64,000 bases of DNA from an uncultured Gammaproteobacteria bacterium (GTDB taxonomy: Bacteria > Patescibacteriota > Microgenomatia > UBA8517). The position numbers and the translations under genes were made by a program. This document shows, in pieces, positions 20,714-64,000 of this stretch; within the stretch, counting starts at the first letter, position 1, and each line of letters opens with the position of its first letter. Where the stretch lies: positions 6,711 to 70,710 of the forward strand of contig CAZRJH010000004.1 of the NCBI GenBank assembly GCA_964600575.1, written 5' to 3'. A model generated the notes under the pieces. It saw nothing but the letters and a program-made list of their open reading frames with translations. It was not told the DNA's origin and did no database searches.

Positions 20714-20719
20714 CTAAGT

Positions 20720-26646: not shown

Positions 26647-26649
26647 TTT

Positions 26650-45428: not shown

Positions 45429-46013
45429 CTAAAGTTTCGTCTCGTCTATATATTTAAACGAGATATAACCAAATACACCCTCCGAAACAATCACCTCATA
45501 CCATTCGCCGTCTTTTTGAGTATATTCAAATATTTGACCGTCTTTGGCTGTTCCAAGTTTTTCCGAGTAAATTGACGGTTTGGACCTGATATTCACCTCG
45601 GGTACTCCGTCGTTTATTTTAATAGTTAATGTTTTATTGGGCATAGGTGTTTCTTTAGCTTTTGGCATAACAAGGCCGTTTGTTTCGGCTATTTCTGGAG
45701 CAGGATTGGGTTTTGGTTGAAAAAATACATTTTTTACACCCACGCCTACAAATATTAAGAAAAACAAACTCGCCCATAAAACATCCTTTGTTCTAACTTG
45801 GGGAAAAGTATCGGGGTTGGGAATAAAGTTAGGGTTAAGTATCGATCTTAAGTTCCCAAAAATTTCTAGAACAAAATATGCAACTACGGGTAAAAATAAT
45901 GTTGCAAATATCAAAGGTCCTCCTGATTGAGTTGTAAGGATTGTAGAGATTGCAATAAAAAAAGATGCCGCTGCGGAGTAAAAAAATAATGCTTTGGGTA
46001 GGAGATTTTTCAT
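45429..46013 (-). CDS. Membrane-anchored protein with C-terminal SH3b-like domain
   Basis: Conserved N-terminal 2-TM module (FFYS...LP...YF) and a C-terminal ...GQIFEYTQKDGEWYEVIVSEGVFGYISFKYI. Confidence 0.5.
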   Translation of the reverse strand: MKNLLPKALFFYSAAASFFIAISTILTTQSGGPLIFATLFLPVVAYFVLEIFGNLRSILNPNFIPNPDTFPQVRTKDVLWASLFFLIFVGVGVKNVFFQPKPNPAPEIAETNGLVMPKAKETPMPNKTLTIKINDGVPEVNIRSKPSIYSEKLGTAKDGQIFEYTQKDGEWYEVIVSEGVFGYISFKYIDETKL

Positions 46014-46050: not shown

Positions 46051-46686
46051 TCACTCCAACTCGTTTACATCTTTGGAGTTAACCCAACCAGATTTGTTCT
46101 CGGAAACGGCTACTTTGTACCAGCCTTCTGCCTTTTCTATAAACGGATAGTTAACACCTTTTATTATCGTGTCCAGTTTTTGGGAATTGGGGTTTTTATC
46201 CAGGTATATGTATCCGGACTCAACTCCTTGTTTAAGTGTAATCCTTGTTCCGCCTTCTTCTACCACTTTGCCGATTATAATATCTGCAACCGTTTCACCT
46301 TCGGGGTCGGGGGTTTCCAACGGTTCCGGAGTTTTATTTGTGGCGTTAAGTTTTTGAACAAGCTCTTCATTTTTTCTTAAGGCCTCCGAAAGTTGTGATT
46401 TTAGGGTCGAGTTATATCTGGAGGGGTCAAGTTGCGCCGCTAATTTATAGCCGTATATACCCAAGAAAGATAAAACTGCCAAAGAAATAATGAATCGTAC
46501 CGACCATCTTTCAAAATTTGTTCCACTGGGATTGGTGAGCTTGATCCAAAAATAAAACAACATGGGTAGCAGAAGTACGCCCGAAATAAAGTTCAGAGGT
46601 TGTGGGGAAAATAAACCAAAAGATATAAAAAAGACAGTTACTGCAACTATCGAATAAAAGAATAAAAACTTTTCCAACTTATGCAT
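46051..46686 (-). CDS. Membrane-anchored protein with C-terminal SH3b-like domain (paralogue)
   Basis: Same N-terminal 2-TM module. C-terminal GWYKVAVSENKSGWVNSKDV. Confidence 0.5.
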   Translation of the reverse strand: MHKLEKFLFFYSIVAVTVFFISFGLFSPQPLNFISGVLLLPMLFYFWIKLTNPSGTNFERWSVRFIISLAVLSFLGIYGYKLAAQLDPSRYNSTLKSQLSEALRKNEELVQKLNATNKTPEPLETPDPEGETVADIIIGKVVEEGGTRITLKQGVESGYIYLDKNPNSQKLDTIIKGVNYPFIEKAEGWYKVAVSENKSGWVNSKDVNELE

Positions 46687-48745: not shown

Positions 48746-49174
48746 TTACTTAAAGAGTCCTGAAACTATAACAAAATTTACAAATATAGCAATGTTTATA
48801 AATATCGCTATAAGGCACCATGAACAAAATGTTTTGATAACTTTGGCCTGAAGATAAAGTAAATAAAAACTAAATAAGGTAGCAGAAGAAACAGCAACAA
48901 GCATTATCTGGCTCAAGATTCTGGTTGGTCCAAAATTTTGCACAAGAATAGAAAAAACAAATACGGAGATATAATAGGCTATACCGTAAATTTCGTTTTT
49001 TATACCAAAGTGGTTTCCATACTTTGAACCTACCACTTTTGAACAATCCTCCCCCATAAAACAAAACATCTTTTTACCTTCCTTAACCTCCCTTTTATAT
49101 TGCCAATGAAGAAAATATGCATTTAGAAGGCCCAGAAATGACAGTATCCAAAGTGTGAACATGTTTGTAAACAT
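48746..49174 (-). CDS. Vitamin K epoxide reductase (VKOR) family / DsbB-like thiol oxidoreductase
   Basis: TM1 (LSFLGLLNAYFLHW), loop cysteine pair CFMGEDC, SKYGNHFGIKNEIYGIAYY, and the CSWC (CxxC) active site in the last TM. Confidence 0.65.
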   Translation of the reverse strand: MFTNMFTLWILSFLGLLNAYFLHWQYKREVKEGKKMFCFMGEDCSKVVGSKYGNHFGIKNEIYGIAYYISVFVFSILVQNFGPTRILSQIMLVAVSSATLFSFYLLYLQAKVIKTFCSWCLIAIFINIAIFVNFVIVSGLFK

Positions 49175-49212: not shown

Positions 49213-49659
49213 ATGACATATAAAAGCTCAAAAATTTTAGTAATTGCTTTTGTATTGTCTATTTTAATAGGAGGAATTTGGGCGGACCATTTGCCTCATC
49301 ACGATTTCTATCCTTTCTTTTCCTGGAGTTTGTTTTCTAACTCTTCTGATAACGACACCTCTTACTTTATAAAATTAAAGACTTTTGACGGTAGACCCGA
49401 CAATACGGTTTTGTATGGGGGTAAAGTATCCGATTATGTAGGCGGATATTTCTTGCCGGACTTTTATTGGGATGTTCAGGAAGCAGGTAAGACTGCTTTA
49501 TCTGGTAGTAAGTCTGATCTGTTAGAAAAAATCGAATCGAGATTTAAGTCCGGAAATGTTGACTATCAAATAGTTCTTGCAGACTACGATGCTGTAGTAT
49601 TAAAAAAAACCGGCTCTTTCAAAAACATAAATGTAATTGCCGAGTATAAAACTGAATGA
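49213..49659 (+). CDS. Hypothetical exported protein (148 aa)
   Basis: N-terminal signal anchor. No motif recognised. Confidence 0.45.
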   Translation: MTYKSSKILVIAFVLSILIGGIWADHLPHHDFYPFFSWSLFSNSSDNDTSYFIKLKTFDGRPDNTVLYGGKVSDYVGGYFLPDFYWDVQEAGKTALSGSKSDLLEKIESRFKSGNVDYQIVLADYDAVVLKKTGSFKNINVIAEYKTE

Positions 49660-50603
49660 AGAAGATATTTAATCTGGAATTTATAGAAAAGGCGGCGGAA
49701 AATAAACAAGCAGTTTTTAAAGCAGTCAACGCTGTCGCAACTTTTTATTTTCTTCAGATTGCTTTGGCTTTTATTAATCTAATGAAGATCGGAGCGGTGG
49801 ATCCCGAACGAAGCGGATTTCTTCCGATCTGGCCAATGAGCTGGGCGGGTAGTCTACCTTACTCCTTTACATCGCAACTCCTCGCGATGTTTTATGTGGC
49901 TGCTTCTTTTGTTGCAATATTTTTTTGGAGGAATAGATTTGCTAGACTTTTGGTTTTTGTAAGTTTTTGGCAGGTTCATGCTCTAGACAGCTCGTTTGGC
50001 TTTATTAATCATTTTTACTACCTTATTTTTTATACGCTCTTTATTTTCACCTTCTTACCGGACACTAGCGAAAGTAAAGATTTGACCAATGACCAATCAA
50101 AGAAGTTTTTGTTGGTTTATTGGGGGGCAATAGCCGGGATATTTGCTACATATACTTTGTCGGGTTTTTGGAAAGTGTATTGGGGAATTCTGGCAATTAT
50201 TGACGGTAGGCTTAGTTCTTTTTCTATGATGGCCTTTCCCGAGCATGTAGCCAGAAAAACCATATTCGAAAGTCGAGAATACTTTTATAGCGGCATAGTT
50301 ATTTCTAACTCAATTCTTTCCTGGATTGCTTATCTTGGGACAATATATATAGAAGTAGTCGCAGTTCTGGTTGCTTTTAAGCCGAGCCTTCATAAAATTT
50401 GGGCTTTTATTTTTATTTTTATGCATGTGGGAATTCTTCTGGTTATCGGAATTCCTTTTTTTGAATCACTGTTTGTGCTGTGTATCATTGTATTGAACTC
50501 TCCATTTTCCGGTAGTCTGCAGTTAGGTAAGATGTTTTCCGACCTTCCCATATTCGGATATTTTTTAAAGAAAATATTTAGAACAAACGGAGTTGATTAT
50601 TAG
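49656..50603 (+). CDS. Polytopic membrane protein (315 aa), possibly HTTM-like
   Basis: 8-9 hydrophobic helices and overlapping start/stop with the upstream gene. The family call is speculative. Confidence 0.4.
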   Translation: MKKIFNLEFIEKAAENKQAVFKAVNAVATFYFLQIALAFINLMKIGAVDPERSGFLPIWPMSWAGSLPYSFTSQLLAMFYVAASFVAIFFWRNRFARLLVFVSFWQVHALDSSFGFINHFYYLIFYTLFIFTFLPDTSESKDLTNDQSKKFLLVYWGAIAGIFATYTLSGFWKVYWGILAIIDGRLSSFSMMAFPEHVARKTIFESREYFYSGIVISNSILSWIAYLGTIYIEVVAVLVAFKPSLHKIWAFIFIFMHVGILLVIGIPFFESLFVLCIIVLNSPFSGSLQLGKMFSDLPIFGYFLKKIFRTNGVDY

Positions 50604-51361
50604 AAGTAAATTAGAGTATTAGGAAGCATCCCGGAAATTTTCGCCTGTTCTTCTTTTGTAATGTTGTTATCTCCTAGATACAAAAACTTAAGCTGGCTAA
50701 GATTTGCAATACCGGGAGGAAGAGACTTTAAACGATTGCCGTGAAGATCTAGTGAGACTAAGGAGTTTAGGTTACCTATCTCCTGGGGAAGGACGGAAAC
50801 TTTGTTGTTGGCCAGTGACAGATTTTTGAGTGAGGAAAGGCCCCCAATTGACGCGGGAACGGATTTAATTTTGTTTCCCGACAAATCAAGCGTTTCTAGA
50901 TTGTTTAAGTTGGAAATGGCAGAATCTACTTTATTTAGTCTGCTGTCTTTTACTTGCAGCCTTGTTAGAGATCCCATTTTGTAAACTTCTTTAGGGATTG
51001 CGCCTATGTGGCTGTATTCAATTACAAGCACGTTTATCTGTGCGGAATTTTCGAATACTTTCTTTGGAATCTTGTAGATATCGCTAATGTAGTCAAAACC
51101 AACCCCTGTACCCGAAACATTTTCTTCCTTTTGTGCAACCAGCCTCAATATTAGTCCCGGAATAATATATTTACCTTTGTATAAAAAAGAACCTAATACC
51201 GAAACTAAAATTCCAGCAAATATTGCAGATATCAAAAGACCTTTGTTGACTTCCGGTTGTGCTTCTACTTCTTGGACGGGAACCTCTGCTATTGTCGTTT
51301 GTTCTGGGGCGGGGGTCTCTTGTGGTGTTTGCTGTTGAGTCTGGGGGTTGTCGGGGTTCAT
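50600..51361 (-). CDS. Leucine-rich-repeat (LRR) protein with N-terminal Pro/Gln/Thr-rich region and TM anchor
   Basis: Tandem LxxLxLxxNxL units (LETLDLSGNKIKSVP, LKNLSLANNKVSVLP, LVSLDLHGNRLKSLP, LKFLYLGDNNI). Confidence 0.75.
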   Translation of the reverse strand: MNPDNPQTQQQTPQETPAPEQTTIAEVPVQEVEAQPEVNKGLLISAIFAGILVSVLGSFLYKGKYIIPGLILRLVAQKEENVSGTGVGFDYISDIYKIPKKVFENSAQINVLVIEYSHIGAIPKEVYKMGSLTRLQVKDSRLNKVDSAISNLNNLETLDLSGNKIKSVPASIGGLSSLKNLSLANNKVSVLPQEIGNLNSLVSLDLHGNRLKSLPPGIANLSQLKFLYLGDNNITKEEQAKISGMLPNTLIYF

Positions 51362-51460: not shown

Positions 51461-51922
51461 ATGGTGTCTTTAATAATGAAATACATTAAATATGTTTTGT
51501 TTTTTTTGGCCTCTTTTGTTATTTCTTTCTTAGTTCTAAACTCTTTGCCGGTTAGTTATTTGAATGTAAAGGATCAAGCAAAGGGAACGACCATTGAGGT
51601 TGGTTTTGTTAGGTTATCAAAATTATCGTTCTTGGTAGTTCAAACAATCGACCCTGTAAGCGGTTTAACCGACAAAGGTGGATTTTTAAATAATCCCAGT
51701 CCATTGCCCCCGGGAATATATAGGAATGTAAATCTTTCGTTAACAAACGTAAGCGGCGAAATCCCGGACAAAGTGGCCGTGACTTTATACGAAGATACAA
51801 ATAAGAACGACTCATTCGACGGTTACTACGACCACGAAGACGGGGTGATTATAGAGGAAGACAAACCAATTTTTAATCTAGTTAACAAAAAGATAATTAG
51901 AAAAGTAATTCTTTTAAAATGA
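51461..51922 (+). CDS. Hypothetical exported protein (153 aa)
   Basis: N-terminal hydrophobic anchor. Confidence 0.45.
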   Translation: MVSLIMKYIKYVLFFLASFVISFLVLNSLPVSYLNVKDQAKGTTIEVGFVRLSKLSFLVVQTIDPVSGLTDKGGFLNNPSPLPPGIYRNVNLSLTNVSGEIPDKVAVTLYEDTNKNDSFDGYYDHEDGVIIEEDKPIFNLVNKKIIRKVILLK

Positions 51923-51923: not shown

Positions 51924-53153
51924 ATGAATATTTATAAAAAGGTAAATAAAAGAATTGCCATAATGTCGTTTATAATTGCGGTTCCCGTTCTCATTTATTT
52001 ATCGGGACATTTCAACAAAAATAACTCATTAGATAAGTCATTTTTGAGGTCAAAAGTTGCTTCAGTGTTAAAAAAATGTAACAAGGGGACCAACACCCTT
52101 AATTCGATAGATCAAAGATGCGTATATAAAGAGTTTCATAAGTTTGTTAACAAAAAGAATGTTTCCTTAGTTGTCGCCTCTTTAATGGATATTTTTTCCA
52201 AAGAAGATAACTCCAGAAATTTGGGTACCAATAATTGTCATATTCCTGCTCACATTGCGGGTGAGATTGCTTATCAGGACGGTGCGAATTTAGATGAGCT
52301 TTGGCAAAAGTGTTCCAATAACTGTACCTTTGGTTGTTTGCACGGCGGTTTTCAGGGAATGTTTAAAGAAAAGGGGCCGGCACTTTTGGATAATCTGGAA
52401 ACTGCCTGTAAAGTTTTAAATAATCCGGATGACGCCGATCTTAGAAGTTGTTGGCACATCATAGGCCATGGTTTGGCTGAATACTTTGGGTCCAATCTTG
52501 ATGCGGCGGTTAACAAATGCCTAAGTCTCCCTAACGAAAAACAGCAACGCCACTGCATAATGGGTGTTAGGATGGAGTTTATTGTTGCCTCTGTTGATAA
52601 CACTAGCCCCATGCCGCCACTAAAAGGTTTTGAGTATTTGGATTTTTGTAAAAAATTTCCATCAAAGTTTGTTGAGGACTGTTATGCCGAAGCAGCTTAT
52701 TATCAGATTCGTATAACAGACGATGTTAATCAGATGGTTGATGTTTGCAAGCTGGTTCCTAACATTGGCGATTCAATAATACGCTGCGTAACGGGGTCGG
52801 GGTCCGTATTCTTTTTTACGAATAAAGCCAATGCCCAGGTAATTCACGATTTTTGCGCCAGATACGAAAACAAGAAATATGAGAATGAATGTGCAATAGG
52901 ATCCGCAGACTTGTCGTCTTCGGAATGGGACCATCTTCAAACTGGTGCCAATATTTGTCTTTTAACAACCCCGGACTTTGTAGGTGAGTGTTTGGCTTTC
53001 TATGGCGGTAGAGTCCAATTCTACAATGGTTTAGCAAAGCGTAAAGAAATTTGTTCCGAGTTATCCGCTAAAGACGAAAAAAGCTGTATGGGTAGTCCCA
53101 AGATGGATAGGGAATACCTAACTCCGGTTACATTCACTCTTCAGGAAAGATAA
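51924..53153 (+). CDS. Exported Cys/His-rich repeat protein, paralogue 1 of 8 (no N-terminal His-rich beta domain)
   Basis: Signal anchor plus ordered motifs CHIPAHIAGEIA, CWHIIGHGLAEYFG, CxxGxx.... 22 Cys. Confidence 0.6.
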   Translation: MNIYKKVNKRIAIMSFIIAVPVLIYLSGHFNKNNSLDKSFLRSKVASVLKKCNKGTNTLNSIDQRCVYKEFHKFVNKKNVSLVVASLMDIFSKEDNSRNLGTNNCHIPAHIAGEIAYQDGANLDELWQKCSNNCTFGCLHGGFQGMFKEKGPALLDNLETACKVLNNPDDADLRSCWHIIGHGLAEYFGSNLDAAVNKCLSLPNEKQQRHCIMGVRMEFIVASVDNTSPMPPLKGFEYLDFCKKFPSKFVEDCYAEAAYYQIRITDDVNQMVDVCKLVPNIGDSIIRCVTGSGSVFFFTNKANAQVIHDFCARYENKKYENECAIGSADLSSSEWDHLQTGANICLLTTPDFVGECLAFYGGRVQFYNGLAKRKEICSELSAKDEKSCMGSPKMDREYLTPVTFTLQER

Positions 53154-53328
53154 TATGCTTATCGTAATGAGCTGTGTATAAAACCGCCCATGGCTTGGTT
53201 GGTCTTTTATCAATAAACCCGATTCTAACATTTAGCATTACATTCTTTTAGACAGTCAGCGCGAACAAAACCTAAATCCACTCGTCTGGTAAATTTGTGA
53301 TTATTAAAATGAGGAACTAACAGGCTTT

Positions 53329-54435
53329 TTATATTTTTTCGTTATGTACCAAGACACCGCCTGCAAAGTAAGCGTGGTAAGGGCCGGGGAGAGACAAGTT
53401 GTAAACAGTGTTGGTTTCGTTGACATTCTCGATAGATTCGATAGCGTAGGCACTTCCGTCGGAATTCATTAGAGTGTCTCCGATAACGAGAGTGTCGGCG
53501 TGTACCCAAGCGTTTTTACTCGGAGACCAGACAAGATGGTTGCCCGTAACTTTTAGACTATCGTTTACGAGTAAGTAGCCACTAACATTTTCGTGTACCA
53601 AAAGTCTACTAACCACTTGGGGGAAAGTTCTTTTGTTTGCTAAATCATAAGATAGAACTATGTCTCCAGTTTTGATGTCTTCAATAGACTTTGTAGAACC
53701 GTCGGCAAGTGTCACTTGAGTTCCTGCTAAGAAACAACTGGAATAGTAAAGTTGGGAATATGAGTAGGCGGCATAGCTGGATTGACCGTAACCGTAGTAC
53801 GTGCCCTGTGAATAGCTGTAGTAAATACTTTGACCGTAACCGTAGTAGGCTGACTGAGCGTATGCGTAGTAAGTTGATTGTGAGTAAGAGTAACAAGTAT
53901 TTGTTAAAGAGAAAGACGATGCACCACAGTCTACAGTCGAGTAAGAATCAAAAAGACCAAGCCTTCTGTAGCCTGATGCCGTAGCTGTTCTGAAGTTGGT
54001 TAGAGTAAAGTTGTCTGCCCATCCATCTGCGTCCGTATCTTGCAAATATATTGGGCTTCCGGATTTGATAGAGCCTCCCGCCTGAACAGACAAACTCCCT
54101 GTACCGATGGTTAAAGAACCAAATGCCAGTGTTCCACCGTTATTTATTGTTATGTTTCCACCTGTCGTAAGTGATAATTGTGCAGAATTAGTGGTTGAAG
54201 CGTCTGTTGTTCCATTATCCACACCTTCGACATTGCTTGCAGCGATAGAACAAGTGGTTGCCCAATTAAGCACATTCTTGGTAGTGGCAGTCATGGAAGA
54301 ATAAAAGTTACAAGCTGCTTTAGCGGAAGAGGGTGTTAAAAGTAGAACCAAAAAAGCGAATACTACTGCGCTTAATGATTTTGTATATGTTTTTGAGGTT
54401 AACATTATTTTTTGCTGCTTAGGACCTTGGAGCAA
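53329..54435 (-). CDS. Exported Tyr/Ser-rich repeat protein ending in a Hint (Hedgehog/intein-like, BIL-type) domain
   Basis: Signal peptide, a (YY/YG/QS) low-complexity tract, then CFLAGTQVTLADGSTKSIEDIKTGDIVLS ... VLVHNEKI, with the N-terminal Cys and C-terminal His-Asn signatures of a Hint domain. Confidence 0.6.
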   Translation of the reverse strand: MLQGPKQQKIMLTSKTYTKSLSAVVFAFLVLLLTPSSAKAACNFYSSMTATTKNVLNWATTCSIAASNVEGVDNGTTDASTTNSAQLSLTTGGNITINNGGTLAFGSLTIGTGSLSVQAGGSIKSGSPIYLQDTDADGWADNFTLTNFRTATASGYRRLGLFDSYSTVDCGASSFSLTNTCYSYSQSTYYAYAQSAYYGYGQSIYYSYSQGTYYGYGQSSYAAYSYSQLYYSSCFLAGTQVTLADGSTKSIEDIKTGDIVLSYDLANKRTFPQVVSRLLVHENVSGYLLVNDSLKVTGNHLVWSPSKNAWVHADTLVIGDTLMNSDGSAYAIESIENVNETNTVYNLSLPGPYHAYFAGGVLVHNEKI

Positions 54436-55000
54436 CCGTAACCGTTGATGTTTTACCGTTTGATGACTTTGCCGTTAGAGTTAAGATGTATTTGTAGTCT
54501 ACAGTGTCGTTTAGACTGGCACTGCCGGACCAAACCCCGTCTGCTGCCGATCCCGATTTAAGACTAAGTTCAATGTTAACCGATCCACGATCCGTAGTTA
54601 AAACTCCGGTCAAAGTAGACACTCCTGCCGTGTCGTTGGCTTTGACTGTTAAGTTAAGTGTCTGTCCTTTTTTGACATCCAAGGGATCAAAAACAACTTG
54701 GGTAACAGTAGGGCCTTCGTGTTGACCCATGCCCACCTGGTAAGTTCCCTTAACGCCATCATCCGGTCTTAAGGGGATTGGTGTAGGAGTTGGTGTTGCT
54801 TTTGGCTTTGCTGTTGCCGATTTTGTTATATCCGTGACTTTAATGTCTTTTGGTAAATCCGCTGTTTGATTTGTAGTGTCTACGGAAGCTGGCGGGGTAA
54901 TGCTTTTCCAAACAAAATAAAAAGAGGCACCAAGAACGACAGCAATAAAGAGTAAAATTACTACAATCGAAACACCGCTATTGTCAGATTTTCTTTTCAC
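54419..55000 (-). CDS. Exported protein with Thr/Pro linker and Ig-like beta domain, hypothetical
   Basis: N-terminal TM or signal anchor, a KPKATPTPTPIP linker and a beta-rich C-terminal domain. Confidence 0.45.
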   Translation of the reverse strand: MKRKSDNSGVSIVVILLFIAVVLGASFYFVWKSITPPASVDTTNQTADLPKDIKVTDITKSATAKPKATPTPTPIPLRPDDGVKGTYQVGMGQHEGPTVTQVVFDPLDVKKGQTLNLTVKANDTAGVSTLTGVLTTDRGSVNIELSLKSGSAADGVWSGSASLNDTVDYKYILTLTAKSSNGKTSTVTVAPRS

Positions 55001-55090
55001 TGTGTAATAGTAGTATTAATGATGTATTTTATTAAAGTCTTTGTCAAGCCCTGGATTTAAGCGTTTTTTAAGTTTAACAATACTCAAATA

Positions 55091-56353
55091 ATGTGTGGAA
55101 GTTTTTTAGGAAGTGATAAAGTATTATATTCGAAAGTACGAATGCATAAACAATTTATTTACAACTTTTTGTTCGTAATTTTTGCCTCGGTTTTAATATT
55201 TGGAGGATTGGTTCAAACTTTTGGCGGTAGCTTTTACCCGGAATTGTCTTATCTAAATAAAAAAAATCTTCAGTTTTCGGATTTACAAAAATTTTTTAAA
55301 CAAATGGCAGACAAAAAAGGAGCATTGTATGCCTTCAGTGCTTTAAAAATTGCAAAACTACCTCCAAATACAGATGTTCACCTTTTGGGCCATACGATTG
55401 GGGACATTCTTTACAAACAAAAAGGTCTCGACGGGATAAAGTACTGTACCCAGGATTTTAGGAACTCTTGCTCTCACTCAATAGTTGTAGGTCTTTTTGT
55501 AGAAAGAGGATCGTCTGCACTGGATGATATTGCAGAAGTTTGCCGTACCGCACCGGGTGGGACTGGGGCATATGGTATGTGTTTCCATGGTTTAGGGCAC
55601 GGAATACTCGCCTTTGCCGGGTATAATATGGAAAAGGCTGTAGAACTTTGCAGAAAGGCGGGCACAGAACAAACAGGTTATATAGAAACTGCAGAGTGTG
55701 TTGGGGGTGTCGTTATGGAGATGGTTGCTGGTGTTCATGACAAATCTGCTTGGGAGAAGGAGCGCGGAAAATACCTTTTGTCGACCAAACCTCTATCTCC
55801 TTGTACAGAGCCTTTTGTACCTGCGGTTGCCAAGCCAAACTGCTTCCTTTATATAACCCCTCATCTTTGGGAGGCTGCCGGTGGAGATTTGGGTAATCCT
55901 ACGGATGCTGTCTTTTCAAAATCCTTTGCATACTGTGAACAACTCAAAGGCGAAAACGCGGTTTATAAAGAACTATGTTATGGCGGTTTTGGAAAAGAGT
56001 TTGTCGGTCTTGCGCAGTCGCGTGACATTAGAAATATCGGGGCAATGGGAGAAGCGGAGCTTGGCCTTGTTTATAAATGGTGTAATCTGGCGGGTAATAT
56101 GTTTGGTATAAAGAGTTGTGTTAAGCAAGCAATAAACTCACTATATTGGGGCGGGGAAAACGAGTTGGGTGCCACAATAAAATTTTGTGGTATTGTGACG
56201 GATGAAGAGATCAAAGAGTCCTGCTTTAATCATGTTATTGGTTCTTTTAGGTTTTATCAAAGGTCGAACCCTAAGAAACTAGAACAAAGTTGTAAAAATC
56301 TTCCGGAACCATACAACTTGAGATGTGTTGATCCGGGTTTTATTGAAAAATGA
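55091..56353 (+). CDS. Exported Cys/His-rich repeat protein, paralogue 2 of 8
   Basis: Motifs MCFHGLGHGILAFAG and ECVGGVVMEMVAG. The likely true start is the internal Met at about 55142 (MHKQFIYNFLF...). Confidence 0.6.
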   Translation: MCGSFLGSDKVLYSKVRMHKQFIYNFLFVIFASVLIFGGLVQTFGGSFYPELSYLNKKNLQFSDLQKFFKQMADKKGALYAFSALKIAKLPPNTDVHLLGHTIGDILYKQKGLDGIKYCTQDFRNSCSHSIVVGLFVERGSSALDDIAEVCRTAPGGTGAYGMCFHGLGHGILAFAGYNMEKAVELCRKAGTEQTGYIETAECVGGVVMEMVAGVHDKSAWEKERGKYLLSTKPLSPCTEPFVPAVAKPNCFLYITPHLWEAAGGDLGNPTDAVFSKSFAYCEQLKGENAVYKELCYGGFGKEFVGLAQSRDIRNIGAMGEAELGLVYKWCNLAGNMFGIKSCVKQAINSLYWGGENELGATIKFCGIVTDEEIKESCFNHVIGSFRFYQRSNPKKLEQSCKNLPEPYNLRCVDPGFIEK

Positions 56354-57519
56354 AGATTAAAACGGTTAGCGGATTGTTGCTCCTGACATTTTTTTATTTT
56401 GCCTTTTGGAGCAAGCCATTGACGGGAAATATTGATCGTAGATTACAACAATGCAAAAAAAGTGACCAAATCTGTTACAAGAATATGATTGTAGAGGCCT
56501 TTGATAAATATGGTCTCAGCAGGTCTTTAGATTTGGTGGATAAAATTTACTCTAGAGATTCAACGTTTGGTTCTACTTGTCACGATATTGGCCATCTTTT
56601 GGGGTCCAAAACATTTAAACTTTTTAAACAAGGAAAAGATTTTGAGATTACGTCAAAGGTAGCTTTCTGCTCCTACGGCTTTTATCACGGATTTATGGAA
56701 ATCTTAGCATCGGAAGGAGATGTCAAAAGGGCCAGAGATTTTTGTAAATATGTGGACAGCCGAGTTTCCAAAGAGACACCCGACGCCACTTTGCAATGCT
56801 TTCATGGGATAGGGCATGGTTGGGTGAATATTCACGGTGATAAAGCTTTGGTTGGTAACGATTTAGGAATAGCTAAAAAAGGCTTAAGCTTATGTCGGGA
56901 GGTTGCATCCACCGATTCGGAATTAAGCCGTTGTGCAACGGGAGTTTTCAACGGACTGTCGGTTTTTTACGCAAACGAAGAATATGGTTTAAAAATCAAC
57001 AAAAGCGACCCTATGTGGATTTGTAAAAAAGTTGAAAAAGAATTTCAAGACCCTTGTTATGTGAGTATGAATGCTATTTTATTTTCAATAACCGGCGGCG
57101 ATTTTAGAAGCTCTGCAAAATATATCGAATCGATAGATGACGATGTTGTAGCATCACACGCCATGATAAATTTGTCATTGCCCTTTAGTCTTTCGGAGAT
57201 CAACAATAACGACCATTCTAAAAGCGTGGCCGTTTGTAAAAGTCTTCAGGATCGTTTGATTATCCCTTGTTTTCAAGGGTTTGCATTTGCCTTTATGGAA
57301 CACGGAGAACCCGGCAAAGAATATGTTAGAGCGGTTGAGTTTTGTAAGGTAAACGGTTTGACGGATAAAGAAGAAAAAGGATGTCTGTCCTATATCTATT
57401 CTTATATGGCCCAATGGTATCCAAAGGAAAAGGCTTATTCTATATGCCGGTCAGAAAACGGGTATGAACAATTGTGTAAAGAAAAATTGGAAGAAGGAAT
57501 TAATGGACTCCCTAAATGA
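56350..57519 (+). CDS. Exported Cys/His-rich repeat protein, paralogue 3 of 8
   Basis: Motifs CHDIGHLLG, FCSYGFYHGFM, CFHGIGHGWV and CATGVFNGLSVFY. Start overlaps the upstream stop by 4 nt. Confidence 0.65.
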   Translation: MKIKTVSGLLLLTFFYFAFWSKPLTGNIDRRLQQCKKSDQICYKNMIVEAFDKYGLSRSLDLVDKIYSRDSTFGSTCHDIGHLLGSKTFKLFKQGKDFEITSKVAFCSYGFYHGFMEILASEGDVKRARDFCKYVDSRVSKETPDATLQCFHGIGHGWVNIHGDKALVGNDLGIAKKGLSLCREVASTDSELSRCATGVFNGLSVFYANEEYGLKINKSDPMWICKKVEKEFQDPCYVSMNAILFSITGGDFRSSAKYIESIDDDVVASHAMINLSLPFSLSEINNNDHSKSVAVCKSLQDRLIIPCFQGFAFAFMEHGEPGKEYVRAVEFCKVNGLTDKEEKGCLSYIYSYMAQWYPKEKAYSICRSENGYEQLCKEKLEEGINGLPK

Positions 57520-58676
57520 AAAAAATAATGGTCGTTCTCAGTTTAATAATTTTATTAGGGTATTTTGCTGTATCAAAAGAATGGCCAAAGGTTAATCTTT
57601 CCTTGGACAAAATATCCAAAGCAATCATCTACAAATGTGCAGACGCTAATACTAAAAGCGTTTGTTACGAAGAAGAGATTCCGAAATTAACAAATGTCTT
57701 AACAATGGAACAGACATTTGATGTTACTGGAGTTATTCAATCAAAAGTTGCCGATTTTCCTTACTGTCATGTTTTGGGTCATAAGTTGGCGAGCATTGAG
57801 ACAAAAAAGGATCCCTCTCAATGGAAAAGTGTTATGGCACGTTGCCCGGCAGGGACTTGTTCCAATGGCTGTGTTCACGGAGCATTTCAGGAAAGATACA
57901 AATACGAAGACCTTTCCAAAGCGGAGTTCGTCTTAGCTAAAAAAGACTTTGAAACAGTTTGCGAAAAAAGCGATTCGTTTAATCCCACAGGTCTTGAACA
58001 AGGCAGTTGTTATCATGCCCTTGGGCATTTGATGATGTATCTTACCAACGCAGACATAAAAGAATCGGTAATTGCCTGCGACGAAGTGGCTCTTAAAAGT
58101 GACGGAAGAGATTTTAGGAATGTTTGTTATGCCGGGGCATTTATGCAGATATATCAACCCCTAGACACAGACGATAAATCTCTTGTAAGTAAGTTTAACT
58201 TAAACTCGGAAAACTCCTGGCAATTTTGCTCAACTTTTGAAGAGTCAAAAAGAAACGCCTGCTGGGAAGAGTCCTGGCCGGTTTTTCTTCAACAAATTAG
58301 TGTCGGGCGGGGGCTATTGGATTTTTGTGGGATGCTTGGAACGGGAAGTGAAAAGTGCGTAAGAGACCTATTGTATATAATGCCGATTCAATTTAGATTT
58401 GACTACAAATCAATTTGGACTTTCTGCAAGGGCCTTACTCAAAAATACCAAGGACAGTGTTTTGCTATGACAGCCTCAAGAATTTTGGAAATCGATAAAA
58501 GAAACGGGCAAAAAACCATCGACTTTTGTATGTCTCTAGATACTACAGATAAAGATGTTTGTCTAAATCAGCTACTTACCGATTTGCGTTTTGATTTCAC
58601 TTTTGGTTCTCCGGGATACAATTCTGTTTGCGACAAATTACCGGAACCTTGGAAATCTAGATGTTTTTCAAAATGA
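57516..58676 (+). CDS. Exported Cys/His-rich repeat protein, paralogue 4 of 8
   Basis: Motifs CHVLGHKLA, CVHGAFQERY and CYHALGHLMMYL. Start overlaps the upstream stop by 4 nt. Confidence 0.65.
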   Translation: MKKIMVVLSLIILLGYFAVSKEWPKVNLSLDKISKAIIYKCADANTKSVCYEEEIPKLTNVLTMEQTFDVTGVIQSKVADFPYCHVLGHKLASIETKKDPSQWKSVMARCPAGTCSNGCVHGAFQERYKYEDLSKAEFVLAKKDFETVCEKSDSFNPTGLEQGSCYHALGHLMMYLTNADIKESVIACDEVALKSDGRDFRNVCYAGAFMQIYQPLDTDDKSLVSKFNLNSENSWQFCSTFEESKRNACWEESWPVFLQQISVGRGLLDFCGMLGTGSEKCVRDLLYIMPIQFRFDYKSIWTFCKGLTQKYQGQCFAMTASRILEIDKRNGQKTIDFCMSLDTTDKDVCLNQLLTDLRFDFTFGSPGYNSVCDKLPEPWKSRCFSK

Positions 58677-60088
58677 GTAGGCGAAACATTTTTATTTTCT
58701 TCATCACAATCTTCGTTTTAGCTTTAAATGTAAAACTCAAATACAGAGTGGAATTGAAATCTAATGGATATCAACCTTCTGAAATAACTATAAAAAAAGG
58801 AGATAGTGTTAAATTCTTTTCCGAATATTCATCTTTCTGGCCTGCATCCAACCCCCACCCAAATCATACGCAGAGTCCGGATTTTGATCCCAAAAGGGCA
58901 ACAGCAAAAGACAAAAGCTGGGATTTTACCTTTGATAAAGCCGGAGTATATACATATCACGATCATTTGAACCCTTTTTATAAAGGCAAAATCAAAGTTG
59001 TCGAAACTAATCTATTTGTTTATTTAAAAAACAAATTCGCAAATTTTACGAGAGTTAGTTTTGAAAAACACGATTCGCAATACATAAACAAAGTTTCCGT
59101 TTTGTGCAAAGGCGAAGAATGGGAGGAACGAAAAAATCTTATTGATTGTTGGAATTCATATTTTTCGGAACTTGTTAAAGACTTTGGTCCAAATGAAAGT
59201 TTACGGATACTTGATGCACTTACCACAGGAGGTTTTGTATCGTTATCTGATTGCCACAACTTTGCAGATCAGATTGGTTCAGACTCATATTGGCAGAAGG
59301 TGTCGGGTAAATCTTTTACTTTCGATGATACTTTTGGAATTTGCAGTTACGGTTTTTTCCACGGCTTTATGTTGGAAGATGTAAGCCACGGCCAAGATTT
59401 TGAAGCTTCATTCAAACTTTGTAACAAGTTGGCAAATTATGGGGAAAATATGGTTAATGAATGTTTTGTAGGGGTGGGCAACGGGTTGGCATATTATTTT
59501 TGGAATACTTTGGGCGAAGATGTGGTGTCGATAGTTGGTAAATCAAAAAGCGTCTGTGAGTCGGTGGGTAAATATAAAGATTCATGTGTTTACGGTGTAT
59601 ACGGCGGCATGGAGCACTTGTATCTTAAGATACACGGGTCCAGTTTGTCTATCGATCAGACGAACCCTTATTTTGTGTGTTCTAAGGAATTGGGTGATAA
59701 GTATTTGCCATATTGTTACGAAAAGATAGACAGGCCTCTTTTTTCCGATTTAAATTTTGATATTGTCAAGATCGCGTCTTGGATAAACAAGATTCCGAAC
59801 CAAGAAATAAGAAAAGCAGAGGCAAAAAGCATCGGAAACTTTGTCAGCCAGTTTTGGATCTATAAGGACGAAGCTGATTTTGTACTTGCCAAGAGCAAAT
59901 GTTATGAATTTAGAGGTATTCTTTATTCCAGCTGTTTGGAAGGTGTTTTTGAAGGAATTTTGTCTAATTTAAATGAGTCCGGGAGGGCGGATGAGTTTAA
60001 GTGTTTAGGCAAAAGTCTCACGAGTTCTGAGATAAATATTTGCTTATTAAAAAAGAAAGAAACTATCGAAGCTGTCAAAACGTTTTAA
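58661..60088 (+). CDS. Exported protein: N-terminal His-rich cupredoxin-like beta domain plus Cys/His-rich repeat domain, paralogue 5 of 8
   Basis: N-terminal domain KKGDSVKFFSEYSSFWPASNPHPNHT...YTYHDHLNPFYKGKIKVV, then CHNFADQIG, CSYGFFHGFM, CFVGVGNGLAYYFW and CVYGVYGGMEHLY. Confidence 0.65.
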   Translation: MFFKMSRRNIFIFFITIFVLALNVKLKYRVELKSNGYQPSEITIKKGDSVKFFSEYSSFWPASNPHPNHTQSPDFDPKRATAKDKSWDFTFDKAGVYTYHDHLNPFYKGKIKVVETNLFVYLKNKFANFTRVSFEKHDSQYINKVSVLCKGEEWEERKNLIDCWNSYFSELVKDFGPNESLRILDALTTGGFVSLSDCHNFADQIGSDSYWQKVSGKSFTFDDTFGICSYGFFHGFMLEDVSHGQDFEASFKLCNKLANYGENMVNECFVGVGNGLAYYFWNTLGEDVVSIVGKSKSVCESVGKYKDSCVYGVYGGMEHLYLKIHGSSLSIDQTNPYFVCSKELGDKYLPYCYEKIDRPLFSDLNFDIVKIASWINKIPNQEIRKAEAKSIGNFVSQFWIYKDEADFVLAKSKCYEFRGILYSSCLEGVFEGILSNLNESGRADEFKCLGKSLTSSEINICLLKKKETIEAVKTF

Positions 60089-60091
60089 ATC

Positions 60092-61516
60092 ATGGCAAAA
60101 AAAATACTAACATCTTTTTTGATTGTGTGTGCTGTTGTTTTCGCGGTAATTATTGTTTACCAACCTCGTTTAGAGGTGGTTCGAATGACTCCTTCCGGGT
60201 TTGCCCCTTCGTACTTAACAGTCATCAAAGGACAGTCTGTTAAATTTGTTTCGGATGGTGCTTTGTTTTGGCCCGCCAGCGATCCGCACCCAAATCATAC
60301 GAATTTTTCGGAATTTGACCCCAAAAGTCCGATAAAAGACGGCGATTCCTGGACATTCAAATTTAGTAAGTCCGGTTTCTTTGAATATCACAACCATTTA
60401 GAACCAAGCTCAAGGGGTGCGGTTAAGGTTATCGAGACGAACCCTGTTGACTACGCTTTAATACACATCAAAGATTTATATAATAAGTTTTTTGTAAAAC
60501 ACGATATTAAATATGCGATCTCGCTAGAAGAAATGTGCTCGAAATTAAGAGAAGATAGGGTTAAATATATAGAATGTTGGTCGGAAACCTTTACTAACAT
60601 TACTCGTGACTTTGGTGTTACGGAGGCAGTTAAGACTCTGAGTCTTGTTAATTCTTCGTCCGGAATAACATTGGGCGATTGTCACTTGATAGCAGACCAA
60701 ATAGGCACAGATGCTTATTGGCAGTTTTCTTCCGGAAAAAAATTTGAATTTACAAAAGATTTCGCCTTATGTGATTTTGGATTTTTCCATCACTTTATGT
60801 CGGAACATGTGAGTCATGGCCAAGACTTTTTGGGATCGGAGACTTTGTGTTCATCTCTCGACGAAACTCTGGTTGATCAATGTTTTTTTGGTTTAGGTAA
60901 CGGTCTGGCCTATTATTTTTGGGGGATTTATCCGACAAGTTCTGATTTAATAGTTTCTAAAGGTCTTGGGGTTTGTAAAAAACTGCAAACGAACGGCAGA
61001 ACATGTGCTTTAGGTGTATATAGCGGGATTGATCACTTGTTCGAGGGTAAACATGGGTCGGAGTTGGTGGTAGATATCAAAGATCCGTTCTCTTTTTGCA
61101 GGATGCAACCTGATCGCGATCTGGCTATATCCTGTTACGAAAGAATGATTCCTTCGATATCTCATGTTTTAGGTAAAGAATCTAGCCAAAATGCAAAAGT
61201 GCTAATTTCTTGGGTTTACAAGATGCCATATTTTGCAAGACAGGCTTCTATGAGACGATTGGGAATAATGTTATCCGAGGAAGAATCGGTAAAAGTTAAT
61301 CCGATCCCAAATAAGGCGTTAGATATTTGCAGAAACCAAGCGGGTGTATATTCGGGTGAATGTGAATGGGGGGTGTTTTATAATGTATTTCTAAATGGAG
61401 CTTCGGCAACAAGCGAATTTTACGGAAAAGATTGTGAAAGTTTTGGAAGCTTGAAGGATGAGGAAAAAACGAGATGTCAGGACGCCTATGATTCAACTGT
61501 AGATTTTAGAAAATGA
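60092..61516 (+). CDS. Exported protein: His-rich cupredoxin-like domain plus Cys/His-rich repeat domain, paralogue 6 of 8
   Basis: N-terminal domain KGQSVKFVSDGALFWPASDPHPNHT...FEYHNHLEPSSRGAVKVI, then CHLIADQIG, CDFGFFHHFM, CFFGLGNGLAYYFW and CALGVYSGIDHLF. Confidence 0.65.
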   Translation: MAKKILTSFLIVCAVVFAVIIVYQPRLEVVRMTPSGFAPSYLTVIKGQSVKFVSDGALFWPASDPHPNHTNFSEFDPKSPIKDGDSWTFKFSKSGFFEYHNHLEPSSRGAVKVIETNPVDYALIHIKDLYNKFFVKHDIKYAISLEEMCSKLREDRVKYIECWSETFTNITRDFGVTEAVKTLSLVNSSSGITLGDCHLIADQIGTDAYWQFSSGKKFEFTKDFALCDFGFFHHFMSEHVSHGQDFLGSETLCSSLDETLVDQCFFGLGNGLAYYFWGIYPTSSDLIVSKGLGVCKKLQTNGRTCALGVYSGIDHLFEGKHGSELVVDIKDPFSFCRMQPDRDLAISCYERMIPSISHVLGKESSQNAKVLISWVYKMPYFARQASMRRLGIMLSEEESVKVNPIPNKALDICRNQAGVYSGECEWGVFYNVFLNGASATSEFYGKDCESFGSLKDEEKTRCQDAYDSTVDFRK

Positions 61517-62790
61517 ATAACCGCAATAAAATTATATTAATATCAATTGCAACCCTTGGCGTCTTATTGGGGATTTTAATCACCAACTACAAAGCAGGTA
61601 GCGGAAAGGCAAAAACACATATTGTCACTTATAATTCCAAAGGTTTTAACCCCAGCACCCTAACCGTTGCTAAAGGAGATAGGATTGAGTTTAAAAACGA
61701 GACGAAAGAATTGTTTTGGCCCGCCAGCGATCCTCACCCTTTACATAGTTTATATCCGGAATTCGATCCGAAGGAGCCGGTGGATGCAGGATCTAATTGG
61801 ACGTTTAAACCTGTTAAAACCGGGGTTTGGAAATTTCACGATCACCTGTTTCCGAGCAACCGCGGAGTTTTGACTGTTCTTTCAAGTGAGAACGCCGATA
61901 TTGCAGGAAGGGTGTTAAAAAGGGACGAGATAAAGTCGTTGATAAGTAAAAAAGGTACAGAAGACGCATATAGCTATCTAAAATCTATTTATGATCCTTC
62001 CACATCTTTTGCTCATTCCACATTTCATTTATTTGGTGAATTGCTTTTTGATAAGCTTGGAACAAGAGGAATAGAGCTTTGTGATAATTTTGGGGGCTTT
62101 GGTTGTTACCATGGGCTTTTTGTAAAGGCAGTTGCCCAAAGGGGGATAGAAACAGCCGTCGAGTTAGATAGGATTTGTGTGGAAAAATTCGGCGTACAAG
62201 GTTTGGGATGCCCTCATGGTATAGGACACGGCCTGGTTGAATACTTTGGCCTTGGAAAAGTAAATGAGGCTCTTAGTGTTTGCCAAAAACTTTCTTGGAA
62301 AGGGATGTTATTTGGCTGTCAAGGCGGCGTATTTATGGAAAACAATTTTCCTACGATTTTTGACAAAGAAGGGATAGGAAATGTTCAAACAAGAGAGGCA
62401 CATGGAAATTTACTACAACCTTGTTTGGATGTTGACCCCGTCTTTCGCCCTGCTTGCTATTTTGAACAAGCTTCATGGTGGAACAACGTACTAAAGCATG
62501 ACTTTCAAAAGATTGGAAACTTTTGCAACTCACTTAAAAATCAAAATGAATACGAAAGCTGTTTGATGGGAGCTGGTAATACCGCAGCCGAAACCTCGCA
62601 TTACAACAAAGAGTCGGTTGTCGACTCCTGCAAACAAGTATATGGAACCAAATCTCAGGCGCTTTGTAGGGCAGGCGGATCCTGGGCATTTTTTGCAAAT
62701 CCGGAGAAAAGAAACGAATCTGAATCTTTGTGTACAGACTTGGGTATCTATTCTGATTTGTGTTTGTCAAAACGGGTAATTGTTAAATAG
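61513..62790 (+). CDS. Exported protein: His-rich cupredoxin-like domain plus Cys/His-rich repeat domain, paralogue 7 of 8
   Basis: N-terminal domain KGDRIEFKNETKELFWPASDPHPLHS...WKFHDHLFPSNRGVLTV, then CYHGLF, CPHGIGHGLVEYFG and CQGGVFMENNFP. Confidence 0.65.
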   Translation: MNNRNKIILISIATLGVLLGILITNYKAGSGKAKTHIVTYNSKGFNPSTLTVAKGDRIEFKNETKELFWPASDPHPLHSLYPEFDPKEPVDAGSNWTFKPVKTGVWKFHDHLFPSNRGVLTVLSSENADIAGRVLKRDEIKSLISKKGTEDAYSYLKSIYDPSTSFAHSTFHLFGELLFDKLGTRGIELCDNFGGFGCYHGLFVKAVAQRGIETAVELDRICVEKFGVQGLGCPHGIGHGLVEYFGLGKVNEALSVCQKLSWKGMLFGCQGGVFMENNFPTIFDKEGIGNVQTREAHGNLLQPCLDVDPVFRPACYFEQASWWNNVLKHDFQKIGNFCNSLKNQNEYESCLMGAGNTAAETSHYNKESVVDSCKQVYGTKSQALCRAGGSWAFFANPEKRNESESLCTDLGIYSDLCLSKRVIVK

Positions 62791-62791
62791 G

Positions 62792-64000
62792 ATGAATTCT
62801 TCTAAAAAGTTGATTTTTTTCTTCGTGTTGGTGATTCTTTTGTCGATGTTATATGTTTTTTTGGGAACAAAAAAAACAAGAAATTATGAAGTTAAATACA
62901 CGAATAGAGGCTTCATGCCTGCAAAGCTAGATTTAAAAAACGGCGATGTTGTTACTTTTGTAAACAATTCCGATTTGTACTTCTGGCCTGCAAGTGATCT
63001 TCATCCATCTCATCTTTTATATCCGGAATTTGATCCCAAAAAGGCTTTGGAAAAAGGTGAAACTTGGAAGTTTGTTTTTAGAAAAAGTGGTACTTGGGGA
63101 TTTCATGATCACTTAGACCCAACAAAAAGGGGTGAAATAAAAATAGGTGATGATTTTATAATCAAATTTTTTGTTAATTCGGTAGACTCGCTGAAAAGAG
63201 CCAAAGTTTTCCTAACTGGCAGGAAAACTTTTTTTGACGGAAAGATAAAAAGTTGTCCAAGTGGGGTGGATTTTGAAACTGGGAGAAGATGTTGGGAAGC
63301 AGCAATATCGGAAGTTAAAAGACTTTTTGGAGTTCAAGCCTCATTTGATTTTTTGAAAGAAGCAATTTCTAAAAATCCTGAAATTATGGGTACCTGCCAT
63401 TATTATTCTGAGTATATCGGGTTTTTGGTTTACGAAGACTATTTTAAAGGTGATAGCCCCAAAGTTTACGAGTCGGCGGAAATTTGCGGCTACGGTTTCT
63501 ATCATGCGTTGTTGCAGGAATGGGTTAGCCATAACAAAAACATTTCGGAGTCTAAAGACTATTGCGAAAGCTTAGAAAAAATTCCCAATCTAAATTTTAG
63601 TAAAGGAAACTGTATTCAAGGAGTTGGTATAGGCTTGACCTTTATGAATGCATCAAGCTTTTACGGGGAGGACGAAAAAATCATATCTAAGTCACTGGAA
63701 GATTGTAGTTTGGCATTCAAAGATGCCGTTTACAACAGCTTGTGTAGCGATGGTGTTTTTTCGGGACTTGCTCATTTGTATTTTGGAGACCATGGCATTT
63801 CGTTGTCAACCGACGATAATAATCCTTTTTGGGTCTGTAATAAATTTAAAGGCGACATTAAGACAAAGTGCTATTTATATAACACCGAGGTAGTTTATTA
63901 CAGATTAAACAAAGATTTTAACAGGACAGTAGATTTTATAATCAAGTCAGCGAATAGAGAGGTTATAAACAAGTCGTTGGAAAGATTGGGCACGACATTG
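62792..64000 (+). CDS. Exported protein: His-rich cupredoxin-like domain plus Cys/His-rich repeat domain, paralogue 8 of 8 (3' end outside window)
   Basis: Open frame from the ATG at 62792 to the window end (403 codons, no stop). Motifs FWPASDLHPSH...FHDHLDPTKRGEIKI, then CHYYSEYIG, CGYGFYHALL, CIQGVGIGL and CSDGVFSGLAHLY. Not in the ORF track because it lacks a stop. Confidence 0.6.
   Translation, partial: MNSSKKLIFFFVLVILLSMLYVFLGTKKTRNYEVKYTNRGFMPAKLDLKNGDVVTFVNNSDLYFWPASDLHPSHLLYPEFDPKKALEKGETWKFVFRKSGTWGFHDHLDPTKRGEIKIGDDFIIKFFVNSVDSLKRAKVFLTGRKTFFDGKIKSCPSGVDFETGRRCWEAAISEVKRLFGVQASFDFLKEAISKNPEIMGTCHYYSEYIGFLVYEDYFKGDSPKVYESAEICGYGFYHALLQEWVSHNKNISESKDYCESLEKIPNLNFSKGNCIQGVGIGLTFMNASSFYGEDEKIISKSLEDCSLAFKDAVYNSLCSDGVFSGLAHLYFGDHGISLSTDDNNPFWVCNKFKGDIKTKCYLYNTEVVYYRLNKDFNRTVDFIIKSANREVINKSLERLGTTL

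Follow-up and report, generated by a model that had tools for sequence, protein, structure and literature searches.

We analyzed a tandem array of genes, here called P1 to P8, that begins at position 51924 and runs past the end of a 64,000-nucleotide (nt) stretch of contig CAZRJH010000004.1 (this whole stretch is referred to as the window). The eight encoded proteins share a Cys- and His-rich helical domain. Neither this domain nor the cluster of genes is described in any library or text that we searched, and a literature search found no publication describing the family. The explanation that we favor, with a probability of roughly 0.42, is that P1-P8 form the first part of an ancient, Patescibacteria-wide cluster encoding a multi-component extracytoplasmic metal-centre system, possibly for copper. 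The strongest functional lead was a cupredoxin module in P5-P8, which had been overlooked in the first-pass annotation of this DNA.

An array of eight paralogous genes

All eight genes are located on the plus strand. P1 (51924-53153, 409 amino acids, aa) consists of an N-terminal membrane helix and the Cys/His-rich helical domain. It is identical to database protein P0001, and its orthologue at the related locus L002 is 76% identical. Two minus-strand genes (53329-54435 and 54419-55000) part P1 from P2 (55091-56353, 420 aa), which is followed by P3 (56350-57519, 389 aa), our reference for residue numbering, and P4 (57516-58676, 386 aa). In the remaining four proteins a cupredoxin module precedes the helical domain. 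P5 (58661-60088, 475 aa) has a membrane helix, the module at about aa 27-113 and then the helical domain; in its NCBI record (P0121) the start is placed at 58673, which gives 471 aa. P6 (60092-61516, 474 aa) is identical to P0122, and in P7 (61513-62790, 425 aa) the strands of the module lie at aa 35-123. P8 starts at 62792 and continues beyond 64000, the end of the window cutting the gene after at least 403 aa.

The genes from P2 onwards are closely packed. Overlaps of 4 nt (ATGA) were found at the P2/P3, P3/P4 and P6/P7 junctions, and P4 and P5 overlap by 16 nt, or by 4 nt (ATGA) if the 58673 start is used. The overlaps and the 3-nt gap before P6 had been noted in the first-pass annotation; its further overlap before P8 is instead a gap of 1 nt. 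A promoter and terminator scan of the 51-64 kb region showed no break within P2-P8, with uninformative counts at or below the shuffled expectation. The genes are translationally coupled.

The mutual pairwise identity of P1-P8 is only 17-42%. BLASTP nevertheless connected all eight (for example P1-P2 with an E-value of 7e-13, P3-P5 with 1e-17 and P5-P6 with 3e-96), and a hidden Markov model (HMM) of the family matched 8/8 of the window paralogues. Judged from these matches, their paralogy is far above chance. A single hydrophobic helix, at the N terminus and nowhere else, was present in 8/8 window proteins, and an N-terminal helix was also found in 209 of 226 homologues. The earlier description of eight same-strand paralogous genes for membrane-anchored or extracytoplasmic proteins was thus borne out, with all the open reading frames (ORFs) present as described. 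The earlier figure of 16-22 Cys per protein was too high, as 14-20 were counted in the complete proteins.

A helical-repeat family without described relatives

The domain shared by the family has a length of about 330 aa. Scans of P1-P7 against Pfam and NCBIfam (E<=1) gave no match to the helical domain, and a profile of the eight domains gave 0 matches among the PDB sequences at E<=10. With the same profile, a word-indexed search detected 345 proteins, all of them unnamed or 'hypothetical', and the named sources among them were Patescibacteria, Microgenomates or Gottesmanbacteria. An exhaustive profile search retrieved 6,825 cluster representatives at E<=1e-3, 5,462 at 1e-10 and 1,398 at 1e-30. 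In that search giant surface proteins were found to carry the domain up to 10 times in tandem. Cupredoxin_1 was the recurrent fusion partner, and GH3 and FG-GAP were each found once among the proteins examined. The two latter cases are P0137 (3,580 aa, outside the window), which has 10 tandem Cys/His domains with the His motifs followed by GH3 and then by LRV/HEAT repeats, and P0147, in which the helical domain occurs together with FG-GAP repeats.

AlphaFold2 modeling of P3 with 75 homologues gave a confident model of 22 helices and no strands (predicted local distance difference test, pLDDT, 93.8; predicted template-modeling score, pTM, 0.89). Foldseek found no structure similar to this model at E<=1e-3, and its neighbours, with template-modeling (TM) scores of at most 0.28, were ARM, PPR, TPR, Sel1 and designed repeats only. 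The N-terminal half of the domain matched the C-terminal half in hhalign with a probability of 92%, and hairpin units of 35-40 aa matched each other at 67-94%; the domain therefore contains internal repeats. It is thus an alpha/alpha-repeat of a family absent from solved structures.

These results agree with several earlier proposals. Four ordered Cys-initiated motifs had been reported that could not be placed in any known family. The motifs are real, with the family-wide forms CHxxxHxxG, CxxGxxHG, CxHGxGHG and CxxGVF, and the profile-HMM check that had been proposed left the helical domain unplaced. The suggested helical repeat fold is what the all-alpha model and the hhalign comparisons gave.

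Cysteine pairs

Conservation was determined over 796 domain copies and is given here in P3 numbering. P3 has 16 framework Cys together with H78, H82, H113, H152 and H156. Cys 132, 150, 182, 195, 225, 236, 296, 307, 332 and 345 were 88-97% conserved, and Cys 35, 42, 77, 107, 366 and 376 were 63-77% conserved; C35, C42 and C77 are absent from P2. The 12-16 Cys of a domain act as consecutive pairs. Among the part-conserved ones, C35 and C42 co-occurred with a phi of 0.92, and C77 and C107 with a phi of 0.81. Mean-field direct-coupling analysis (DCA) of 640 unique sequences (Neff 614; 67,896 pairs) ranked C77-C107 at 2, C35-C42 at 3, C366-C376 at 15, C332-C345 at 38 and C296-C307 at 61, and gave no signal from the invariant Cys.

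Based on the pairwise covariation and the extracytoplasmic location we infer disulfides, one across each helix-turn-helix corner. Both measures of covariation agree with the pairing of Cys proposed earlier, the bonds themselves being deduced from it. The proteins have the features of disulfide-bonded exported proteins, namely the N-terminal helix, the covarying Cys pairs and oxidizing machinery in the form of VKOR in the window and DsbA-like neighbours. MdbA-like oxidoreductases and VKOR are enriched in the Patescibacteria, or Candidate Phyla Radiation (CPR) (PMC6744442). Two paralogues retain the Cys framework with zero His, and the Cys are therefore apparently structural and the His functional.

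The five-histidine layer

H78, H82, H113, H152 and H156 were each 90-94% conserved. The His of the GHG and HGF motifs, to which a possible metal-binding role had been ascribed earlier, were indeed the most conserved residues other than Cys. H82, H152 and H156 were lost jointly (phi 0.91-0.93), with H78 and H113 retained, and all ten His-His pairs were within the top 0.5% of the DCA couplings. Inter-helix couplings were found at 81-110, 86-118, 113-153, 155-198, 160-201/202 and 197-238/239. These couplings indicate that the 'A' helices run parallel and in register, which would bring H82, H113 and H152/H156 to a common level across three helices that lie side by side. The placement of all five His in a single layer is suggested by their conservation, their joint loss and the register of the helices. 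Variable positions 108, 149, 197, 239 and 317 are mutually coupled, border the His layer and differ among the paralogue types, suggesting type-specific partners or substrates.

All five His are present in P1, P2, P4 and P7 as well as in P3. The five positions read H-D-H-V-N in P5, H-D-H-F-N in P6 and H-E-H-Q-I in P8, so that the triad of H82, H152 and H156 is lost in these three. Of 16 paralogues scored in this genome, 10 had five His, 3 had lost the triad, 1 had four His and 2 had none. Loss of the triad was seen in 34 of 223 cupredoxin-fused proteins and in 0 of 531 unfused ones. It may represent a single clade to which P5, P6 and P8 belong.

Two known types of metal site were compared with this layer. 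HxxxH, H and HxxxH elements are present, and a hemerythrin-like or other carboxylate-bridged dimetal bundle was dropped because the Glu after H113 ('HGFME') is not conserved and no acidic column exceeds 60%. The six-His four-helix bundle, or tyrosinase profile, of the type-3 copper proteins (tyrosinase, hemocyanin) was not found.

The cupredoxin module

The N-terminal module of P5-P8 matched Cupredoxin_1 (PF13473), with an E-value of 1.6e-6 for P7 (28.5 bits, cut-off 27) and of 8.7e-6 for P5 (26.2 bits, slightly under the cut-off). Against PDB, a profile of the module matched amicyanin (5e-7) and a NirK cupredoxin (8e-8). By these profile matches this module, and in the array the module of P5-P8 only, has a cupredoxin fold, the Greek-key beta-sandwich, about 100 aa in length, that is related to plastocyanin and amicyanin. 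In 249 copies, conservation of the motif FWPAS-x-HP-x-H ... FD ... YHDH was 91-100%, the conserved residues being W, P, A, S, H66, P, H69, F, D76, H100, D101 and H102.

The ligand set of a type-1 (blue) copper site, His...Cys-x(n)-His-x(n)-Met, is missing. Asp (91%) or Asn takes the place of the type-1 Cys, and the positions of the His and Met downstream of it vary, which makes a type-1 site impossible. Since the blue-copper Cys and Met have been lost and an invariant HPxH...HDH has been gained, the module probably carries a non-blue, type-2-like metal site. In the set of proteins and locus ORFs examined, the module was fused to 213 family proteins and stood alone in 33 small ORFs beside arrays. 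About one quarter of the family members carry it.

Distribution and age of the cluster

A scan with one genome per species gave 239 relatives and 74 loci. Nearly all of the loci are in metagenome-assembled genomes (MAGs) of Patescibacteria, from Parcubacteria and Microgenomates lineages, and some of the deposited labels are doubtful. In nearly all of the 74 loci, 2-14 same-strand family genes were found within at most 21 kb with the HMM and six-frame ORFs, and fused and unfused genes were mixed. The loci L002 and L032, which are on one contig, were collinear with the window, with orthologues of P1-P8 that are 48-76% identical and VKOR in the same place. The array on that contig has about 19 members.

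The P2 type was the most widely conserved; it was found in 47/74 loci at 39-68% identity and was usually the first gene of the array. The P4 type was present in 59/74 loci, the P3 type in 47/74 and the P7 type in 35/74. The P2, P3, P4 and P7 types were recognizable at 30-52% identity in distant lineages (Parcubacteria). As the types have orthologues at 30-76% identity and share only about 20% identity among themselves, the duplications must be ancient and precede much of the CPR radiation. The array had been regarded as a lineage-specific expansion in one locus, a view that we had to abandon in the light of tandem arrays in nearly all 74 loci and of per-type orthologues across Parcubacteria and Microgenomates.

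The genome of the window has at least 17 paralogues, those of the locus L077 included. Logan contigs retrieved with P6 and P7 were short and stopped at P7. L077, a Logan contig that lies downstream of the window without overlapping it, shares its sample of origin with L076, on which part of the window is found. L077 contains seven complete family genes and one partial family gene in tandem, followed by genes for a 575-aa membrane protein, a 198-aa protein, P0286 (found with a conserved-neighbour profile), a PMT_2-like glycosyltransferase and a free His4 cupredoxin, and by one more family gene. The free cupredoxin (L077 12156-12542) matched the HMM of the module with an E-value of 3e-37.

The cluster comprises 5 to about 19 paralogues and occupies about 20 kb or more in this genome. 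Patescibacteria make up a large share of bacterial diversity and have tiny genomes of about 1 Mb. A core envelope function of the cluster is probable, because its upkeep demands a great deal of such a small genome. Most of the 106 protein families enriched in CPR are unannotated membrane or extracellular proteins (PMC6744442).

Several of the MAGs with arrays were deposited as 'uncultured Gammaproteobacteria' or 'uncultured Candidatus Saccharibacteria' (L002, L006-L010, L012, L014, L016, L027, L032, L033 and 17 'Saccharibacteria' loci). These labels look unreliable, since L002 is collinear with the window at 48-76% identity and the named relatives of the window are Patescibacteria and Microgenomates.

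Conserved partners and neighbouring genes

Small membrane-anchored cupredoxin-like proteins were encoded in 44/74 loci. Another recurrent partner, of about 170 aa, was found in 22/74 loci, its gene usually following directly on that of the last family member. Its signal peptide ends in ..A|H-G-x-G-x-S-x-E, so that an invariant His is the predicted first mature residue, and is followed by an Ig-like domain, a small beta-sandwich, and by a membrane anchor at the C terminus. Copies are located at L077 10001-10534 (P0286), L036 11431-11940, L052 11051-11599 and L032 16972-17520. This N-terminal-His protein had no Pfam match and no PDB sequence match, only weak matches to Ig, filamin and PKD domains. 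We take its architecture to resemble that of the copper binders YcnI (DUF1775) and CopC; the second ligand set of either was not identified.

The first of the two minus-strand genes between P1 and P2 (53329-54435) encodes an exported protein with Tyr-rich repeats of the SYY/QASYY type and an intein-like Hint domain (PF07591, E 2.3e-12) at its extreme C terminus ('CFLAGT...VHNEKI'). Relatives of it were found beside arrays in 24/74 loci. A C-terminal Hint domain could self-cleave and transfer the N-terminal part to another molecule. The co-oriented second gene (54419-55000) encodes a 193-aa membrane-anchored protein without a family match. A membrane-anchored DUF7282 protein (51461-51922, plus strand; PF23951, E 4.5e-8) is encoded 1 nt upstream of P1, and recurred beside arrays in about 5-6 loci.

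A gene for a VKOR-family protein, a disulfide-generating membrane oxidoreductase, is located at 48746-49174 on the minus strand (PF07884, E 3.9e-23). Its position about 3 kb upstream of the array was correctly noted before. Its role as a functional neighbour was not supported, since VKOR was within 10 kb of an array only in the window and in L002 and L003, the closest relatives of the window, as judged by single-sequence phmmer, which divergent VKORs could escape. It is plausible that VKOR acts as a general disulfide source. DsbA-like genes were found beside arrays in 6 loci.

Between the VKOR gene and a gene for an LRR protein, two overlapping plus-strand genes encode proteins of 148 aa (49213-49659) and 315 aa (49656-50603, multi-pass membrane protein). 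Neither had a family match, and each recurred near arrays in 13 loci. TPR/Wzy-like proteins were found in 20/74 loci. The conserved-neighbour clusters 1, 3, 5 and 6 gave nothing significant against Pfam.

The window region is dense in envelope and surface genes. They include those for the LRR protein (50600-51361), for a Wzy_C/TPR protein (46717-48693) and for several membrane-anchored proteins ending in bacterial SH3 domains (PF08239), at 45429-46013 (minus strand), 46051-46686 (minus strand) and 12640-15183 (plus strand). At 20000-32000 the G+C content is 0.44-0.47, compared to about 0.38-0.40 elsewhere, and three large minus-strand ORFs (981, 816 and 1,237 aa) had no Pfam match; the 1,237-aa product is rich in Thr, Ser, Ala and Gly. 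These ORFs may encode surface proteins or be part of an acquired region. A 620-aa exported protein (35616-37478, plus strand) combines an Ig-like domain of the Big_13 type with a Redoxin-like domain at its C terminus (PF08534, E 2e-6). Where a CxxC is expected the sequence appears to be 'SSWHPLA', so that the latter domain may be a thioredoxin fold without redox activity. At the gathering threshold, the sole Rfam match in the window was a tRNA gene at 11029-11099 (plus strand, 58.5 bits).

Discussion

The proposed metal-centre system is built on the observed family, fold class, conservation, covariation, cluster conservation and cupredoxin fold, from which it extends to disulfides, metal binding, the identity of the metal and assembly. 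In such a system one N-terminal helix would anchor each protein, displaying the all-alpha repeat domain of about 330 aa outside the cell, and consecutive Cys pairs would staple each helix-turn-helix corner as disulfides. The triad (H82, H152, H156) and the pair (H78, H113) would most likely coordinate one or two metal ions. The cupredoxin module, either fused or free, would supply a non-blue, type-2-like metal site, and the N-terminal-His protein that is often encoded in the cluster would be a further partner. The paralogue types are conserved individually, which makes it probable that they act jointly, as a hetero-oligomeric or sequential cell-surface system that handles metal or performs metal-dependent redox chemistry. 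As to the metal, the cupredoxin and the neighbour with an N-terminal His make copper the leading candidate; Zn or Fe may be used instead.

Several points weigh against this explanation. Most CPR bacteria are anaerobic fermenters, in which copper chemistry is unexpected. No transporter or metallochaperone of a known family was conserved near the arrays in the 74 loci. In the 796 domain copies no acidic column was more than 60% conserved, and no known metal-site motif matched. The covariation of near-invariant columns is driven by few subclades, and may reflect one or a few evolutionary events. Finally, tandem domain copies in giant GH3 or FG-GAP proteins would suit a module for structure or binding no less than one for catalysis.

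A more far-reaching form of the proposal is that the paralogues, the His4 cupredoxins and the N-terminal-His protein assemble into a Patescibacteria-specific surface redox machine for copper or another metal. Its inter-subunit metal centres would be formed from His of the helical domain and the HPxH/HDH motifs of the cupredoxin. We consider this unlikely. If true, it would imply an extracellular electron-transfer, oxidase or host-attacking activity of a new kind for the 'respiration-less' episymbionts.

The main rival explanation is a non-catalytic surface scaffold or adhesin, which we regard as possible though doubtful. In that case disulfide-stapled alpha-solenoids would form a coat or bind host or partner molecules, the His would hold a structural ion or make protein contacts, and the paralogue types would be building blocks or specificities. 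Alpha-solenoids typically bind proteins, and the only structural neighbours of the P3 model were ARM, TPR, PPR, Sel1 and designed repeats. The giant proteins with up to 10 domain copies together with GH3 or FG-GAP point in the same direction, as do the two paralogues that keep the fold without any His, the LRR, SH3, Hint-domain and TPR/Wzy-like envelope proteins among the neighbours, and the variable coupled positions, which suggest type-specific surfaces. However, conservation of five His at 90-94% over more than 700 divergent copies, and their loss as a unit, would be unusual for a pure scaffold. The recurrent fusion to, or adjacency with, a cupredoxin that has an invariant His4 site points to metal chemistry, and the orthologues are conserved rather than diversifying.

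A further rival is an uptake system resembling EfeO. The cupredoxin would oxidize or capture Fe or Cu, and the helical domain would bind it and hand it to a permease, replacing Feo/TonB. The domain order is the same as in EfeO, where a cupredoxin is followed by an all-alpha metal-binding domain, and a multi-pass membrane protein without a family match recurs near arrays in 13 loci. A replacement would also fit CPR, which are largely without Feo and TonB systems (PMC6744442). Yet the helical domain has neither an HxxE motif nor a conserved acidic residue, and the neighbouring genes included no permease of the FTR1/EfeU type and no EfeB peroxidase. Three quarters of the members lack the cupredoxin, and 17 paralogues are hard to reconcile with uptake alone. 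We regard this explanation as improbable. As to membership in the EfeO/imelysin family (Peptidase_M75), the helical domain is unrelated to it by sequence and structure and lacks the HxxE.

It is very improbable that the proteins are a thiolate metal store or buffer in which free Cys, as in the Csp bundles, hold Cu(I) or other soft metals. The 14-20 Cys per all-alpha protein and a copper-protein partner domain would fit, but the Cys are gained and lost strictly as consecutive pairs. Comparison of secondary structure with Cys positions located them at helix ends and turns and not lining a bundle core, and the proteins are extracytoplasmic in organisms rich in MdbA/VKOR/DsbA oxidizing machinery. 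The Csp copper-storage family itself gave no Pfam match, and the Cys here are covarying pairs at helix ends. A recent expansion specific to this lineage, as in the earlier framing, or a contingency locus of rapidly evolving surface antigens would account for tandem same-strand paralogues of low mutual identity but is hardly credible and is refuted by the same-order L002 orthologue of each paralogue (48-76%), the P2, P3, P4 and P7 types in Parcubacteria and the arrays in nearly all 74 loci.

Thousands of proteins belong to this family, which is apparently restricted to CPR and for which there is neither a Pfam model nor a solved structure. Its definition would provide a domain family, and probably also a metal site, of a new kind, and could partly explain how episymbionts interact with their surroundings or hosts. 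The family has a clean, testable signature in its eight pairs of Cys, its penta-His layer and a cupredoxin partner of the non-blue type.

Comparison with known systems

The Helicobacter Hcp/Sel1-like proteins are secreted paralogous alpha/alpha repeats in which each helix pair is disulfide-linked. A Sel1-repeat protein, LceB (8sxq), was a weak Foldseek neighbour of the P3 model (E 0.019, TM 0.21). With that TM score, and with no match to Sel1 (PF08238) in Pfam at E<=1 for seven proteins, the present family was not assigned to Sel1/Hcp. The repeat unit and the Cys spacing differ from those of Hcp, which has no penta-His site, cupredoxin partner or conserved multi-gene operon. In comparison to EfeO/FtrB, there are many paralogues per genome and no EfeU or EfeB partners.

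The cupredoxin module differs from the blue copper proteins (amicyanin, plastocyanin and the Nitrosopumilus purple cupredoxin) in that H66, H69, H100, H102, D76 and D101 are invariant instead. It is similar to the type-2/type-3 sites of multicopper oxidases and NirK in having two short His motifs (HPxH and YHDH) on the same two cupredoxin loops, and a profile of the module gave weak matches to the L1-L2 regions of laccases (E about 0.05) and to a NirK domain. The first motif is Hx2H here, whereas it is HxH in multicopper oxidases and NirK. Unlike these enzymes, the module is a single domain without a second or third cupredoxin domain, and would provide no more than half a trinuclear cluster.

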